Shown in pieces: positions 2,728 to 20,076 of a DNA stretch of 64,000 nucleotides. This stretch comes from Planctomycetales bacterium (GTDB taxonomy: Bacteria; 4484-113). Each line of letters begins with the position of its first letter. Position 1 is the stretch's first letter. The stretch is taken from the NCBI GenBank assembly GCA_037441675.1, contig JBBIRS010000006.1:51644-115643 (forward strand), given 5' to 3'. Made by a program: the position numbers and the translations under genes. Under the pieces are notes generated by a model, which was not told the DNA's origin, ran no database searches, and saw only the letters and a program-made list of their open reading frames with translations.

Positions 2728-2927
2728 AGTGCGAACTTTACATAATGTTGTAATTAGAGTAGGCGCGGTCTCCGACTTTTACCAAATATTTTTCTATAAA
2801 TTTCGCAACTATAGCTAGCGAATGCTCCCAATTTTCAAGCGCGTTTATATCTGAGTAAGATAAGTCTTTGCGATAGTCAAGCGCATAAAAAGGCATTTTG
2901 GTTTGGAGATTGGTTGAAAAGCAAAAT

Positions 2928-3397
2928 GCGGGGGAAATAAGCCGGGTTCTGTCTCTGCGGTCATTTCTCTAGCCTGTCCGTTCCTTTGGTAGTATCCGTC
3001 AGGATATGCCTAGGCGGACTTGCCGAAGTTCCCGACAGGTCAATCGGCATGATAGTGGCGAAGGATGAGCAGTTCGTTTTTCATTCGCGTCAGCGCGGAG
3101 CTTTCGCGAACGTCCGCCACCTGCCTTGCACCGGACGAGTTTGCCCACCCGTAAACTTCACAGTCACGGACGTGCGCTCTTACCGCACGGTTTCACCCTT
3201 GCCAGAGGTCACAACCGAAATTTCGGTTCATCCCGCCAGAGGCGGAACTTCCCGAGGGTCTGGCGGTATTTTTCTGTGGCGCTTTCCATACCCCGCTTTC
3301 ACGGAGTTCTGGGAATTACCCAGCGTCCCGCTCTGTGGTGCCCGGACTTTCCTCAGATGCGAACTTGCATTCACATCCGCGACCGCCTTTCCCCCGC
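2928..3397 (-). ncRNA. rnpB: RNase P RNA, bacterial type A, enlarged (~470 nt)
   Basis: Minus strand has GAGGAAAGTCCGGGCACC, GCCACAGAAAA, AGGGTGAAA..GCGGTAAGAGC and ACAGAACCCGGCTTA; terminal P1 is GCGGGGGAAA/TTTCCCCCGC. Confidence 0.97.
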
Positions 3398-3999
3398 TAT
3401 TTTATTTTACCAGAATCCGCTAGGATTAGACGCAGAGTTTATTTAAATAAATCTCTCCAAGTAGATTTCATTGACGCAATCTTAGACGGTTGGATTTTAT
3501 CACGATATTCTTGCCACTCATTGGCTTGCATTAGCGGAGAAAAGACATATTGGACATATGAGGCTTTTTTCACAAGTTATCCTTTTCGCAAGATGGAAGT
3601 TGTGTTTTGGTGATGAAGGGTGCTGTTTGGAACGAGGGAAATTTCTTCCACTCTGTGGTCATAATATCTTCTGCCTGTCCGTAGAGAATTATCTGGTTTT
3701 AATATGAGTTAGTGAAATGGCTCTTAGTAAAATTGTATCGCTAACTTTAGAAAATGTGTCTATCAGCTCTGTCCGCACTTTTTCGGGTCAAACAAGGTAG
3801 GCCAACCCGTGGGCGGTCATATCCTTATCTCTTGACATAGCCTGTACGCAACGCACATTTTCCCCTGCGCCTCCTCATCTCTTCCAAGATCCCCTATCGC
3901 TACCACCAGTTTATCGTATCCTAACGCAAAAGGTTTCATCAATGATTTTAATTACTTTATTTCCCCTTATTTCTAGCAAGGGTGAAAATTTTTCTTCCT

Positions 4000-13566: not shown

Positions 13567-16194
13567 TTAGGATACTTCTAAAACACGTACCACACTTTCT
13601 AACAAGTGCTCAGATGAATAAGGTTTCATCAAAACGGCTGAAAATCCTATCTCCTCAAGCTCAGCGATATCAGCACTATCTGCAAGCCCTGTTGAAGCGA
13701 TGGCTTTGACGTTCGGATTGAGCTTCTTTAGCTCTGAAATAACGGTGCGCCCATCCATTATTGGCATAGAAATATCAAGAATAACCAAAGAGATTTCACT
13801 TAGGTACTTTCGGTAAATGGCTAGTGCTTCGGTTCCATTACTCGCAATAATCACCTTAAACCCGTTTGATTCCAACGTGAGCTTGGCAACTTCTGCAATG
13901 ACCTGTTCATCATCCGCAACAAGAATGGTTTGTCCTTTACCCTTTGTCTCCTTTGAAGTCCCCATTCTTTCTATACCAAAGTCCCTTATAGTTTCTGTTT
14001 CAATTGCAGGAATATAAACGTCAAAACGCGAGCCATTTCCAGGCTCACTATAAACGTTAATAAAACCTCCATAGCTTTTCACGATGTTATAAACAGTTGA
14101 GAGACCTATCCCACTACCCATTTCTTCTCCCTTTGTAGTATAAAATGGCTCAAAAATGTGGTCAATTACCTCGGGCGTCATGCCGGTTCCAGTATCGCTT
14201 ATTGTAATCAGAACATAGGTGCCGATTCTAGCGTCAATATGAATTCTCACGTAGTTCTCATCAATGAATACGTTTTCACAGCTTATTCTCAACAAGCCAC
14301 CATTTGGCATAGCGTCCTTTGAATTTATGCAAATATTTAGTAGGATCTGCCTCAATTGAGTTGGATCGCCCAAAACGCAATTATTGTCCTCCTTTAATTC
14401 AACTCGGAGCTTTATATTTTTTGGGAAAGTTTGCGAAATAAACTTGGCAGTTTCATTTATTATATCCTTTACATTCACCGTAATCCTTTCCCCTACCACA
14501 CCCTTCCCAAAAGATAAGATACGCTTCACAAGCTCCGCACCATGTTTTGTAGAATTGTCCAACAGCTCAAGAAACCTTTTGGATTTCTCGTCTGTAAGTT
14601 TCTCTTTCAAATTGCCCACGGCGACAAGAATAGGAGTCAGAATATTATTCAGGTCATGGACAATTCCGCTGTCGAGCCTACCAATACTTTCCATTCTCTG
14701 CGTTCGCATAATCTGAGATTCAAGAAGCTTTATCTCTGTTAAATCCCTTTCCACCACTAGTACTGATTCAGCTTTTCCTTCCGCATCTCGAACCAGCACC
14801 CAACTACTGCTGACGATTCTTTCTTTACCATCTTTAGTTTGGATTCTCAATTCTGTTTCCAGTGATCCCTTCCTTAGAACCTCTTTTATATAGTCCTGAT
14901 ATTTGCTTTCTTCCTTCAATAGCAAAGACTGAAATTCTTTCCCGATAATATCATCCTTCTTAAAACCATAAAGTTTAGTCGCTCCTTCATTCCAGAAATA
15001 AACTCTTCCTTGTAAATCTCTTACTGAAATAGCGTCGGGAGCTAAATCCAACAATAACGCTTGTTGTCTCAATTGTGCTTCACTCTTCTTTATCTCTTAT
15101 ATATCTTTTTCAATATTTTCAGCCATTTCATTAAAAGCTTTACCCATTAGGGAGAACTGACCATACAATCCTTGCGGGTTAATCCTAGTAGAAAGCTCGC
15201 CTTTTGATATCTTCAAAGTAGCATCCAGAAGCCTAGTTATAGGTTTGACTATCAATAAGTCTCCCATAAACCAAGCGCCCATTAAAGCTAAAGATGTTAC
15301 TATTAGCAAAACTAAGAGCTCTAGGTTCATCCTGTCCCTTAATTGAGAAAACGCAATCTCTTCAGGTATGATAAAGATGGCATAAGCCTTCATAGCCCCA
15401 GGGCTTGAAATCAATTGTGCATACGTGTAAAGATTGAGGACTCCTGCCTCATCCTTTTCAATAATTGTGCCAGTATCAAAGTCTAACTTTTCTTTCATTC
15501 TTGATAGCTCTTCAAACTTATCTCCTGCTTTCTCTTCCGTAAAGGGATAGCGCATCAGTATGCTTCCCCCTTCATCTACGAGTAGAAACTTTGAACCCAA
15601 TGGCGAACCAGATACTCTGATGAAATCTTGAAGCCACTCCAGCGACATTGCGGCGAACAAAACCGCAACAATTTCCCCACTTTCATCCAAAACAGGATAA
15701 GCAAAGTTTATCCCGGGCTTTCCTGTAACTCTACCGATCTGATACTCTCCTACTGAGAAGCCTTTATTTTGTATGACTCGTTTGAAGTAGAGCCTATCTC
15801 CAAGGAAAACCTTTTCCTTGACCGGTAGAGCGCTTGCCAGCAGATATCCATCCCTTCCGATAAGTCCAAAGTTTGCATAAATCAAGTGACTACTTAGGAT
15901 GTTTCGTAAAAGTCCATTCACCTCTTCAACGTTCATTTTCTTGATTGGCTCTGAAAGTGCTAATGATTGAAGAATGATCATTGTTTGATTAACCAGCATT
16001 TTCTCTCTTAAAACCAAAAGCTTTACCAGGGCAAGGAACTTTGCTTTCGTTTCTTCAATTTCTCTTAGCCTGTCTTGTTGTGTTTGTTTAATAGTGATAA
16101 CTCCGAGGGGTAAAGTGCTGACGAGAATAAGCAAAACCAGCGCTAACCTAACCCCAACATTCTGGGATGATGTCCTGAAAGTTTTTTCGCTCAT
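13567..16194 (-). pseudogene. Hybrid sensor kinase (TM-Cache-TM-HAMP-PAS-HisKA-HATPase-REC) split by one in-frame TAA at 15097-15099
   Basis: The two ORFs share a frame: ..ENIEKDI*EIKKSEAQLRQQ..; H-box HDLNNILT, G-boxes DTGTGM and GSGIGL, receiver motifs VADDE and LDISMP. Confidence 0.85.
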
Positions 16195-16640: not shown

Positions 16641-16669
16641 TTGCAAAAATAGTTGCAAGAAGATATAAT
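16641..16669 (+). promoter_or_regulatory. Sigma70-type promoter of the ileS leader
   Basis: TTGCAA-N17-TATAAT. Confidence 0.75.
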
Positions 16670-16693
16670 TTTTACGTGAGGAGCTAGTGAAAG

Positions 16694-16765
16694 ATGTTGG
16701 TATGGAACGACGTTAAGGAGAGAAGAATTTCGCGATTTTCTATTATTATGACCAGGGCGGGATAG
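16694..16765 (+). CDS. Putative ileS leader peptide MLVWNDVKERRISRFSIIMTRAG
   Basis: GAGGAG at 16678-16683; 23 codons with three ATT (16727, 16742, 16745); the stop lies inside the 5' arm of the predicted antiterminator. Confidence 0.6.
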   Translation: MLVWNDVKERRISRFSIIMTRAG

Positions 16766-16821
16766 AGGAACGTGCGTTTTCTATCCCTAGCCCTTCTCGG
16801 AAGAGGAGGGCTTTTTTATTT
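16754..16821 (+). terminator. Attenuator: intrinsic terminator with a mutually exclusive antiterminator upstream of ileS
   Basis: Terminator AGCCCTTCTC-GGAA-GAGGAGGGCT-TTTTTATTT (16789-16821); antiterminator AGGGC-GGGATAG pairs with CTATCCC-(TA)-GCCCT. Confidence 0.8.
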
Positions 16822-16869
16822 CAGAATAATGGAATATTTTGGCTTTATCTTGTTTGATAAGGATGCGAA

Positions 16870-19800
16870 ATGGGCAGATTTGAAAAGGTTGACACTAGTT
16901 ACAACTTTCCGGAGTTAGAGAACAAAATCCTAAATTTTTGGGAGAAGGAGCGGATTTTCCAAAAGAGCCTTGAAAAACCCTCACTAATGGGAGAATTTGT
17001 ATTTTACGAGGGCCCGCCCACTTTGAATGCGCTCCCGCATCCTGGACATGTCCTGACCAGAGTGATAAAGGACATAATTCCACGCTATCGCACAATGAAA
17101 GGCTATCATGTATCTCGCAAAGCCGGATGGGACACACATGGCTTGCCTGTGGAGATTGAGGTAGAAAAAGAGCTCAATTTCAGCTCTAAACAACAAATTG
17201 AATCCTACGGAATTAAGAATTTCAATGAGAAGTGTTTACAAAGTGTTCGTAAGTACGAAGGCGAATGGGTTAATATAAGCAATCGTGTAGGCTTCTGGCT
17301 TGATTATACAGATGCGTATTACACTTACACTAACGAATACATCGAATCTATTTGGTGGCTCTTGCGTGAGCTGTGGAATAAGGGGCTAATTTACGAGGAT
17401 TACAAAATAGTTCCCTATTGTTTTAGATGTGGAACGCCGTTATCTTCTCATGAGGTTGCCCAGAATTACCGCGAAGTGTCTGACCCAAGTGTTTATGTCA
17501 AGTTCAAAATCACCACTGATCTGACCAAATTTCATTCTGACTTGCGAATAGGTAATGTTTACTTTTTGGTATGGACGACAACTCCCTGGACTTTAATCTC
17601 TAATGTTGCACTTGCGGTGAATCCGAATGCGGAATACGTGGCAGTTTATCACTCAGGTGATTATCTCATTCTTGCTAGAGATTTGATTGACTCTGTCGGA
17701 TTATCCGAAGAGCCATTTGTCGCAAGTTTCTCAGGTTCAGATTTAAGGGGAGTAAAATTTGAGCCTCTCTATGGGTTCTTTGAAGTTGATAGAGAAGGTT
17801 GGTATGTGGTAACTGAAGAGTTTGTTAGTTTAACTGAGGGAACAGGTATCGTCCACATAGCGCCAGCTTTTGGTGAGGAGGATTACGAGGTTGGCAAGAA
17901 AAACAACCTTCCCTTCATTCAGGCAGTTGACGATAAAGGTGCTTTCAAGGAGGAAGTGAAGCCTTGGGCTGGTATGAATGTTAAAGACGCTGACCCACAC
18001 ATCATTTCTGAGTTGAAGGCTAGACAGCTTATGTATCACGCCACCACATACACCCACGAGTACCCATTTTGCTGGCGTTGTGAATCGCCACTTCTTTATT
18101 ACGCTTTTATTTCCTGGTTTATAGCTGTAACAAAGGTGAAGGAGAGGTTGTTGGAGCTGAATCAACAGATTAACTGGATACCCAACCATATCCGTGATGG
18201 CAGATTTGGGCAATGGCTTGAGAGTGTTGTTGATTGGGCGCTTTCTAGGAACCGTTATTGGGGGACGCCACTTCCAATTTGGAACTGCGAAAGTTGTGGA
18301 CACAAGATAATGATTGGCTCCTATGATGAGCTTGGAAGGCTTGCCAATCTTCAGGTGGAAGACTATTACAACCGTGAAAGGTTTGACCCACATCGGCCAT
18401 TTATTGATGAGATTAAGATAAGTTGCGAAAAGTGCAACGGCGTGATGAGCAGAGTTCCCCATGTCATTGATTGCTGGTTTGATTCAGGCGCGATGCCCTT
18501 TGCGCGTTATCACTATCCATTTGAGAATAGGGAGCTTATTGATGATGGCAAGCAATTTCCGGCTGATTTTATATCAGAGGCAATTGACCAGACGCGTGGT
18601 TGGTTCTACACGCTTCATGCCATTTCCGTTATGATCAAGGATAGTCCAGCTTATAAGAACTGCTTAGTTCTTGGGCATATCCAAGATGAGCGAGGCCGGA
18701 AGATGAGCAAGAGCCTTGGAAACGTTGTTGACCCGTGGACGGTTATTAATAGGCAAGGCGCGGATGCGTTTAGGTGGTACTTCTACAGCAATACACAGCC
18801 TTGGGTTCCAAGCAGATTTAGCGAGCGAGCGGTTGTCAAAAGTTTGCAGGGATTTCTCATCCCCCTTTGGAACGTGTATTCCTTCTTTGTTATTTACGCC
18901 AACATTGATAATTTTGACCCAACTAGTGAGGCAAGTCCATGGCAAAGCAGAAGTGAGCTGGATAGGTGGATTTTAGTTAAGCTAAACCAGCTTGCTGACA
19001 AGCTAAACAATTACCTTGAGAATTATCAAATAACGGAAGGTGCAAGAGAATTGGAAACATTCTTGGATAGCTTGAGCAACTGGTACGTTAGAAGAAGTCG
19101 GCGTAAGTTTTGGAAAAGCGAGATGGATAAAGAGAAGTGGGACGCCTATCATACTCTTTACGAAGTTCTTACGACACTCGCAAAGCTCATTGCGCCATTT
19201 ACACCGTTTATTGCGGAAGAGTTGTATCAAAAGCTTGTTCGCAGGTTTTATATGGATGTACCCATTTCAGTTCATTTAGTTGATTATCCAACTCCAAAGG
19301 AAGAAGTTAAAGATGACGAGCTTGTGAGAGAGATGGATACTGCTCTAAGAGTAGTTAAGCTTGGACATGCTGCGCGTAATCTCTCCAAGATAAAGGTCCG
19401 TCAACCCCTATCATCCGCAACCATTATTTGCGATCGGGAGGAGATTAAGCAGGCTATTGAGATCCACAAACTGACAATTTGTGAAGAGCTCAACATAAAG
19501 GAACTTATTTTTGCGGAGGATGAAGAGGACTATGTAAATTACTTGGTGAAGTTGAACTATGCCCTTATTGGCCCGAGATTGGGGAATTTAACCCCAAAGG
19601 TCGCGAGCGCAATCTCTGCCATTAATCCTAAAGATATAGTGAGTGAGCTTGAGGAAAAGGGAACGGTTAGTCTTACAATTGAGGATAAGCAGATTGAATT
19701 AGCTAGCACGGAACTTGAGGTTCGGCTAATTGAGAAGCAGGATACTATTGCCCAAAGAGACGGAAACCTTCTACTCATACTCAACACTGAAATTTCCCCA

Positions 19801-20076
19801 GAGCTCAAGGAGGAAGGCTTGACACGGGAGTTCATCAGCAGGGTCCAAAACCTTAGAAAAGAGCTAAATCTTAATTACGAAGATAGAATTGAGCTTTTCT
19901 TTAAGACTGAGGAACCTGTGAAAAGCGCGATACTGAAGCACATGGACTTAATCTGTTCAGAGACCCTTGCGGTGAAATTTATTGAAGATACAAAGCTCTC
20001 TGAGGAGACTGAAGGTGCGCATACAACAGACGTTGAGAATGTGAAGACGGTGCTAAGAGTTGCTCCGGTGAGGTAA
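16870..20076 (+). CDS. ileS: Isoleucyl-tRNA synthetase, type 2 (archaeal/eukaryote-like clade)
   Basis: FYEGPP..PHPGH (HIGH), WTTTPWTL, DWALSRNRYWGTPLP, DQTRGWFY, KMSKS; IleRS2-type C-terminus (EGLTREFISRVQNLRK) with no IleRS1 zinc finger. Confidence 0.97.
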   Translation: MGRFEKVDTSYNFPELENKILNFWEKERIFQKSLEKPSLMGEFVFYEGPPTLNALPHPGHVLTRVIKDIIPRYRTMKGYHVSRKAGWDTHGLPVEIEVEKELNFSSKQQIESYGIKNFNEKCLQSVRKYEGEWVNISNRVGFWLDYTDAYYTYTNEYIESIWWLLRELWNKGLIYEDYKIVPYCFRCGTPLSSHEVAQNYREVSDPSVYVKFKITTDLTKFHSDLRIGNVYFLVWTTTPWTLISNVALAVNPNAEYVAVYHSGDYLILARDLIDSVGLSEEPFVASFSGSDLRGVKFEPLYGFFEVDREGWYVVTEEFVSLTEGTGIVHIAPAFGEEDYEVGKKNNLPFIQAVDDKGAFKEEVKPWAGMNVKDADPHIISELKARQLMYHATTYTHEYPFCWRCESPLLYYAFISWFIAVTKVKERLLELNQQINWIPNHIRDGRFGQWLESVVDWALSRNRYWGTPLPIWNCESCGHKIMIGSYDELGRLANLQVEDYYNRERFDPHRPFIDEIKISCEKCNGVMSRVPHVIDCWFDSGAMPFARYHYPFENRELIDDGKQFPADFISEAIDQTRGWFYTLHAISVMIKDSPAYKNCLVLGHIQDERGRKMSKSLGNVVDPWTVINRQGADAFRWYFYSNTQPWVPSRFSERAVVKSLQGFLIPLWNVYSFFVIYANIDNFDPTSEASPWQSRSELDRWILVKLNQLADKLNNYLENYQITEGARELETFLDSLSNWYVRRSRRKFWKSEMDKEKWDAYHTLYEVLTTLAKLIAPFTPFIAEELYQKLVRRFYMDVPISVHLVDYPTPKEEVKDDELVREMDTALRVVKLGHAARNLSKIKVRQPLSSATIICDREEIKQAIEIHKLTICEELNIKELIFAEDEEDYVNYLVKLNYALIGPRLGNLTPKVASAISAINPKDIVSELEEKGTVSLTIEDKQIELASTELEVRLIEKQDTIAQRDGNLLLILNTEISPELKEEGLTREFISRVQNLRKELNLNYEDRIELFFKTEEPVKSAILKHMDLICSETLAVKFIEDTKLSEETEGAHTTDVENVKTVLRVAPVR

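Follow-up and report, generated by a model that had tools for sequence, protein, structure and literature searches.

Textbook accounts place ileS, the gene for isoleucine--tRNA ligase (IleRS), under the control of T-boxes in Gram-positive bacteria and Actinobacteria. For other synthetase genes, leader-peptide attenuation is established in Escherichia coli pheM-pheST, and in the enterobacterial leaders ilvL (ilvGMEDA), ivbL and thrL, Ile codons sense the charging of Ile-tRNA through ribosome stalling and the choice between an antiterminator and a terminator. Here we analyzed the region upstream of a type-2-like ileS in a 64,000-nt stretch of DNA from a Planctomycetales bacterium (GenBank assembly GCA_037441675.1, contig JBBIRS010000006.1, positions 51,644 to 115,643; hereafter the window). 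Comparison with related genomes and RNA folding models indicate that the leader of this gene is very probably a leader-peptide attenuator of transcription, mediated by the ribosome, through which ileS would be adjusted to the amount of charged tRNA-Ile.

The proposed ileS leader resembles pheM-pheST in its short open reading frame (ORF) rich in cognate codons and in the terminator/antiterminator alternatives before a synthetase gene, with the ribosome as the reader. Amino acid, gene and lineage differ, however, there is no sequence relationship, and the window copy has two competing helices where pheM-pheST has the full 1:2 / 2:3 / 3:4 set. With ilvL, ivbL and thrL it would share the Ile-codon leader, ribosome stalling and the antiterminator/terminator choice, but those leaders control biosynthetic operons and several amino acids, whereas the target in the window is a synthetase in a genome without ilvC or ilvD matches. 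T-box leaders of ileS (RF00230) have the same gene, the same signal (uncharged tRNA-Ile) and the same output (terminator read-through), yet they read the tRNA directly with an RNA of roughly 200 nt, whereas the proposed sensor in the window is the translating ribosome.

In the literature, pheST is cited as a gamma-proteobacterial example of such attenuation in the relevant section of a comparative study (PMC1262725), which also predicts classical attenuators before Streptomyces trpS and leuS. The latter represent synthetase leader-peptide attenuation outside the proteobacteria, known in that section by comparative genomics only; they differ from our locus in using Trp or Leu codons and in belonging to Actinobacteria, whose ileS, according to the same section, carries a translational T-box and not a leader peptide (PMC1262725). 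A small translated ORF of Caulobacter crescentus, CCNA_03934, is annotated as a leader before ileS ('ileS leader CDS', CDS standing for coding sequence); the pertinent part of PMC4117421 names it as a negative control that was not studied and describes neither Ile codons nor a terminator nor a mechanism. Beyond this name, no ileS leader-peptide attenuator was described in the full texts searched, most subscription journals and supplements lying outside the scope. The original prediction had called the arrangement unfamiliar for ileS: no described attenuator of this gene came to light, but a Caulobacter leader had been named and the Streptomyces trpS and leuS attenuators had been predicted. The mechanism is textbook but little described for ileS, and the element is lineage-specific and absent from Rfam. 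Uncharged tRNA-Ile read by the ribosome instead of a T-box, in a little-known phylum, would be an annotatable and testable element and makes a case for a family model, as it falls in no Rfam family.

Re-reading of the sequence placed promoter-like site, Shine-Dalgarno (SD) sequence, 23-codon upstream ORF (uORF), ATT codons, terminator and the complementary AGGGC and GCCCT exactly where the original prediction had put them, all on the plus strand. A promoter-like site, TTGCAA-N17-TATAAT (16641-16669; TTGCAA at 16641-16646 and TATAAT at 16664-16669), has 10/12 consensus matches, a match that alone is not above chance (6 promoter-like sites in 900 nt versus 3.5 +/- 2.0 in shuffles). The SD sequence GAGGAG (16678-16683) lies 10 nt 5' of the ATG at 16694 that opens the leader ORF (16694-16765), which encodes MLVWNDVKERRISRFSIIMTRAG in 23 codons and ends with TAG (16763-16765). 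One in-frame Ile codon, ATT, is found at 16727-16729, and the tandem ATT-ATT at 16742-16747 represents the proposed sensing codons. The intrinsic terminator (16789-16818; -17.7 kcal/mol) consists of a 10-bp stem (16789-16812, 6 G-C pairs) with a GGAA loop and a T6 run (16813-16818). The end of its stem is 57 nt from ileS (16870-20076), whose ATG at 16870 is preceded at a distance of 6 nt by its own SD sequence, AAGGA (16859-16863). No further promoter-like site was detected from the site at 16641-16669, or from the terminator, to ileS; because the terminator precedes the gene without a promoter-like site in between, ileS must be transcribed through it. Overall, the leader folds better than its shuffled versions (z = -3.94; 1/200 shuffles equally good).

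The leader stop codon is contained in a G-rich segment, AGGGCGGGAUAGAGG (16754-16768), which forms the 5' strand of the predicted antiterminator. The core of the latter is a hairpin, GGGAUAGAGG ... UUUUCUAUCCC (GGGAUAG.../...CUAUCCC; 16759-16787), that appears in both the minimum free energy (MFE) and centroid structures and has -14.9 kcal/mol alone. Next to it, across a 2-nt bulge, AGGGC (16754-16758) can base-pair with GCCCU (16790-16794) at the foot of the terminator 5' arm, so that the complete pairing reads AGGGC-GGGAUAGAGG with UUUUCUAUCCC-UA-GCCCU and GCCCU serves as a strand of both structures.

In the model that we propose, transcription would start near 16675 and the 23-codon leader would be translated while RNA polymerase advances. 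When Ile-tRNA is plentiful, the ribosome would reach the TAG at 16763 and cover the G-rich 16754-16768, which leaves GCCCU free; the terminator (16789-16812 plus the U-run) would then form and most transcripts would end before ileS. When Ile-tRNA is scarce, the ribosome would stall with the first ATT (16742) in the A site, or earlier at 16727, and 16754-16768 would remain bare to pair with 16776-16794, thereby capturing the base of the terminator stem and allowing polymerase to read into ileS. As the assembly has no second ileS (the remaining matches are weak paralogues with E-values of 1.6e-14 and weaker), termination must be leaky. The elements themselves are observed, as are their conservation, the bias towards Ile codons and the capacity of the strands to pair; from these we infer that the leader is translated, that ribosomes stall in it and that read-through responds.

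Conservation was analyzed in a collection in which the phylum is represented by 24 species genomes, the order of the window comprising the window's own family (f1, 9 genomes) and a further family (f2, 10 genomes). A type-2 ileS is assembled in 16/19 genomes of the order, the three genomes without ileS being 77-84% complete, and the same arrangement is present upstream of ileS in 16/16 of them (8/8 genera): an ORF that is 16-23 codons long and includes 2-4 Ile codons, a stop codon inside a G-rich strand complementary to the terminator 5' arm, and the terminator, located 40-60 nt 5' of ileS in most loci. The 16 leaders of the order were used to build a covariance model, which matches exactly those 16 sites, directly upstream of ileS (E <= 3.9e-15), and in addition one metagenome contig, L139, with the leader peptide MRFVVSRIGIIRVAPRAG and an ileS that is 76% identical to, and the closest to, that of the window; its terminator stem is identical to the window's. 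The resulting 17 leaders encode 15 distinct peptides. Searches with the model gave a match in 0/4 sister-family genomes with ileS, in 0/80 more distant type-2 ileS loci from genomes (Clostridia, Anaerolineae and others) and in 1/80 metagenome type-2 ileS loci, which is L139 itself, leaving 159/160 other loci without a match. Weak matches elsewhere in the relatives (E 1e-4 to 1e-2) were rejected as Ile leaders, the inspected ones (11/12) being ordinary gene-end terminators, one group of which happened to be neighbors of an Arg leader before argG; the uninspected one, L058, lies on the opposite strand of the ileS leader region of genome G010. The leaders make up a well-conserved, uncatalogued family of putative ileS attenuators that is limited to a single order within a small phylum of uncultured bacteria.

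Homologous ORFs ending in I-I-x-x-(R/L/P)-(A/G)-G/A and a stop codon are found in 17/17 related leaders, with the Ile codons at the same distance from the stop, in agreement with what the original prediction had led us to expect of relatives. Examples of the encoded peptides are MHRKPAIGGSIIVPPRAG, MLLILVECTASIIIPPWAG, MYRIAMTVEIIRPLGG, MAMRNAKYAIIIFCPPGG and MRYMVFSIVITCPRGG. All 15 distinct peptides (16-23 aa, 2-4 Ile each) have their Ile residues in tandem or near-tandem. Isoleucine accounts for 44/263 leader residues (16.7%) compared to 3.6-6.2% in the corresponding IleS proteins. The seventh residue from the peptide end is Ile in 14/15 distinct peptides, six of the 15 have an Ile 12 residues from the end (ATT 16727 in the window), and at the alignment columns of the tandem Ile an ATT or ATC codon is present in 16/16 rows. 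This signal is specific to the reading frame, with 44 ATH triplets in frame across the distinct leaders versus 8 in the other two frames combined. Within the ileS genes of the GC-rich family f2, only 0-9% of the Ile codons are ATT and ATA occurs 0-1 times; every f2 leader has one ATT, and L008, L010, L014 and L016 (3 distinct peptides) additionally have ATA. The rare ATT and ATA codons could raise the sensitivity of these leaders or reflect pairing constraints. The C-terminal Pro, Arg, Gly and Ala residues follow from the G/C-rich helix strands and were not read as conservation at the peptide level. As a control for chance, 157 further type-2 ileS loci, each preceded by 250 nt of sequence or more, were searched for a uORF with at least 2 Ile in its last 10 codons that ends just before a terminator-like hairpin. 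Such a uORF is present in 6/157, one of which is L139, and none of the remaining 5 of 156 unrelated loci has tandem Ile within the last ten codons.

The second conserved feature is the mutually exclusive pairing. A terminator hairpin with a U-rich tail follows the leader stop at a distance of 23-37 nt in 17/17 (-16.9 to -23.4 kcal/mol), the U-run of L015 being poor, and in all relatives the strand with the stop codon can pair with a stretch whose last bases are the foot of the terminator 5' arm. The f1 pairing, between AGGGCGGGGUGA and UUACCCGGCCCU, has a single G-G mismatch; L139 has a perfect 9-bp AGGGCUGGG/CCCAGCCCU; and in f2, GGGGGCUGAUG pairs with CAUCAGGCCCC, or similar sequences do. 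The alternative helices are thus retained between families despite differing sequences, in line with the comparison of stems across relatives that the original prediction proposed. Duplex energies were ranked at each locus: the 24-nt stretch spanning the stop ranks in the top 1% of the roughly 700-1200 control windows for pairing with the terminator 5' arm in 17/17 and the best of all in 10/17. In our window its duplex (-19.9 kcal/mol versus a control minimum of -16.2) beats all 1223 control windows. Within f1, 90.5% of the cells of the antiterminator pairs are paired versus 27-58% in slid registers; these column counts were restricted to the family because MAFFT sets f1 and f2 in different registers, and the duplex ranks were used across loci.

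Ribosome positions were modelled by folding the transcript up to the terminator loop with the covered bases masked, assuming a footprint of 13 nt from the first A-site base. With the A site at the penultimate Ile codon, 4-8 bases of the terminator arm are captured by the stop-codon strand in 17/17, at -20 to -30 kcal/mol. With the A site at the stop codon, the antiterminator is gone in 17/17 and only -0.5 to -6.1 kcal/mol are left, in keeping with the earlier proposal that a ribosome at the TAG covers the antiterminator arm.

The relatives have a third helix, in which the Ile codons together with CCCGCC (or GCCCCC) pair with GGCGGG (or GGGGGC) and the stop codon. Fifteen loci have a protector helix of -11.2 to -18.0 kcal/mol, and that of L139 reaches -9.6. 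For protector and terminator helices together, 93.8% of cells are paired among the 15 distinct sequences versus 84.0 +/- 1.5 in shuffled alignments (0/500) and 47-65% in slid registers, with compensatory changes in 5/14 pairs; the alignment behind these counts was model-fitted and leans towards the model.

Several observations weigh against the attenuator as we draw it. All 17 sequences belong to a single order and to no more than 8 genera, and the statistics therefore overstate their independence. Among the leader ORFs of the relatives, only about half have a clear SD-like sequence by eye, and some starts are ambiguous. Both the invariant AUU and the codon after it are part of the protector helix, where they face the stop codon, and their conservation could partly be at the RNA level; no antiterminator pair within f1 has changed on both sides. 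In the window, the protector hairpin is nearly lost (-3.3 kcal/mol), and the antiterminator takes only 4-5/10 bases of the terminator arm, the shortest overlap of the set. At -21.2 kcal/mol the antiterminator is also weaker than core hairpin plus terminator (-14.9 and -17.7); because these two beat it thermodynamically, read-through must be a kinetic outcome, as in other attenuators. Finally, the original prediction held that a ribosome stalled on the Ile pair leaves 16754 onward free. This applies to the first ATT (16742; 4/10 arm bases captured), whereas a stall on the second (16745) covers AGGGC and captures 0/10, as does a stall at the last Ile codon in L003, L006 and L007 (0/10) and nearly so in L005 (1/10). 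Since only a stall at the first codon of the pair leaves AGGGC free in the window model, this codon would be the effective sensor.

The place of the AUU in a helix would also fit an attenuator that is coupled to translation but responds to the overall supply or speed of ribosomes and not to isoleucine in particular; any slower translation of the leader would then expose the antiterminator, and the Ile codons would be kept mainly since AUUAUC is a strand of the protector helix. In the consensus fold the invariant AUU does pair with the stop-codon region, and the C-terminal Pro, Gly, Arg and Ala would simply follow from the helix strands. However, the helix does not hold all in-frame Ile codons, further ones being found at varying distances from the peptide end (12, 9 and 8 residues), and when the helix-region codons, two per leader or about 30 altogether, are taken away (our own subtraction), about 14 in-frame ATH triplets are left versus 8 in the two other frames. 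Moreover, rare ATA and ATT are used in GC-rich genomes, the window keeps three ATT codons though its protector helix is lost, and the controlled gene is the Ile-specific synthetase. We regard a general speed sensor as improbable, although it is the strongest of the alternatives.

The genomic neighborhood raises the question of a terminator that senses nothing. Across the phylum, a tRNA-Leu(UAA) gene is located just upstream of the leader or of ileS in 18/19 loci (L002-L020, Rfam; anticodon confirmed in 5/5 checked), and in the sister family f3 (L017-L020) a plain terminator directly follows the tRNA and ileS has no Ile leader. The ileS terminator might therefore be a constitutive, partial one, a leftover of the tRNA-Leu terminator or an insulator, and the small ORF might be untranslated. 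Against this, no tRNA is found in the 64-kb window or in the flank of L139, where synteny is lost, and yet both retain the ORF, the Ile codons, both helices and a promoter-like site of their own; the leader therefore travels with ileS and not with the tRNA. Reading frame, stop position and Ile bias are conserved as well, and so is the mutually exclusive helix in 17/17, which makes a constitutive terminator very unlikely. In one f3 locus, L018, the hairpin loop holds GCACGCG, which recalls an apical motif of the attenuators (see below) and may be a remnant or a precursor.

Known RNA families offer no explanation for the leader. Between 16200 and 17000, nothing reaches the Rfam gathering score, the best E-value (0.24) belonging to an unrelated sRNA hairpin, and the T-box model (RF00230) has no match at E <= 10; nor does it reach the gathering score in the window or in the 19 related loci. 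A T-box or other catalogued family was rejected on these grounds, and the absence of a T-box, degenerate or otherwise, agrees with the original prediction. Among 19 unrelated type-2 ileS loci (L059-L078, mostly from metagenome-assembled genomes of Clostridia), the T-box model matches two at the Rfam gathering score, one of them far upstream; most of these 19 genes have no recognised leader. A structured RNA that controls the terminator independently of translation, by binding IleRS, tRNA-Ile or a small ligand, that is a riboswitch of another kind than the T-box or an autoregulatory operator, might account for a motif in the apical region that the attenuator model leaves unexplained, but is made highly unlikely by the missing Rfam match, the simple hairpins with variable apical parts, the strong frame-specific codon signal and the lack of any conserved anticodon-like or specifier-like loop to be seen. 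Taken together, the alternatives are disfavoured because of the frame-specific Ile signal, the rare codons, the leader that is kept after tRNA loss and the absence of a complex conserved fold.

The apical motif, RYGCG (GUGCG, ACGCG), was noticed by eye 2-6 nt after the leader stop in 12/15 distinct leaders and is found at 16771-16776 in the window. It is not needed by the attenuator model and could be a pause signal or a product of chance in G/C-rich loops. The consensus of elemental pauses is G-10 Y-1 G+1; by eye, L002 matches it and the window does not, and an elemental pause site was dropped as an explanation.

Under the leader-peptide attenuator, the protector helix of the relatives would hold an untranslated leader in the terminating state. 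In the window the helix is weak because ATGACC occupies the place of CCCGCC, and in the mask model without leader translation 7/10 arm bases are captured. Without this helix the window leader is a two-helix switch, whose untranslated state is predicted to read through. The three-helix leaders of the relatives and the two-helix leader of the window are a small natural experiment on the dispensable parts of an attenuator. A protector or pause hairpin is not essential to every leader-peptide attenuator. We tentatively suggest a broader scenario, to which we give less than even chances: attenuation of ileS was invented independently in one order of an uncultured phylum, rare ATT/ATA Ile codons and the stop codon became the strands of the protector, and the genus of the window dropped this helix, leaving a two-helix switch that defaults to read-through.

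The same lineage appears to use leader peptides elsewhere. An Arg-rich leader (RRRRSIRRR) with a terminator precedes argG in relatives, which we count in favor of the leader-peptide attenuator at ileS. In f2 locus L049 (reverse strand, about 1560-1840 of the reversed locus), and also in L047, L050, L053 and L056, a promoter-like TTGACA-N17-TATTAT is followed by the Arg-rich leader ORF MSVNIHSIQRRRRSIRRRMRADGARG with its stop codon, a terminator hairpin and an argininosuccinate-synthase-like gene (AFSGGLDTS motif); this element looks like an arginine leader-peptide attenuator before argG. The genome of the window (G000; 1.99 Mb, 18 contigs, 91% complete) has no argG match in this 91%-complete assembly. 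Strict intrinsic terminators are scarce in this genome, with only 29 including that of the ileS leader. Eight of them are located at most 200 nt upstream of an ORF of at least 150 aa, and 5/8 are not at the end of a long ORF. Among these eight terminators of G000, a uORF with amino-acid bias is found only at ileS, and the scan detected no second leader-peptide attenuator.

The ileS product (1068 aa) scores 960.6 bits with TIGR00392 (cut-off 621.4). It aligns with the MupA model over residues 16-1051 (957.3 bits) and with MupB (876.3 bits), both below the 1900-bit exception cut-offs, and this end-to-end alignment with MupA/MupB-type models fits a type-2-like enzyme. Type-2 IleRS enzymes are usually mupirocin-resistant; mupirocin, to which the original prediction expected the leader to respond, would therefore be a useful probe chiefly in a foreign host whose enzyme is sensitive. 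The genome lacks matches to ilvC (TIGR00465) and ilvD (TIGR00110) in its 91%-complete assembly, whereas both are matched in 14/14 control genomes, which suggests an auxotrophy for branched-chain amino acids; the organism probably imports isoleucine. A raised level of IleRS upon falling charging may then be its main response.

In the MFE structure of the full window leader, the Ile-codon stretch UUCUAUUAUU (16738-16747) pairs with AAUAAUGGAA (16826-16835) directly 3' of the terminator; this pairing is probably due to chance, because L139 shows no such complement by eye. Two genes upstream of the leader (13567-15072 and 15097-16194) resemble histidine kinases and lie on the minus strand, as does lpxC downstream of ileS, so that ileS stands alone behind its leader. 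At 2923-3398 of the minus strand, the window encodes a bacterial RNase P RNA of class A (202.1 bits), which is the only Rfam family in the whole window.

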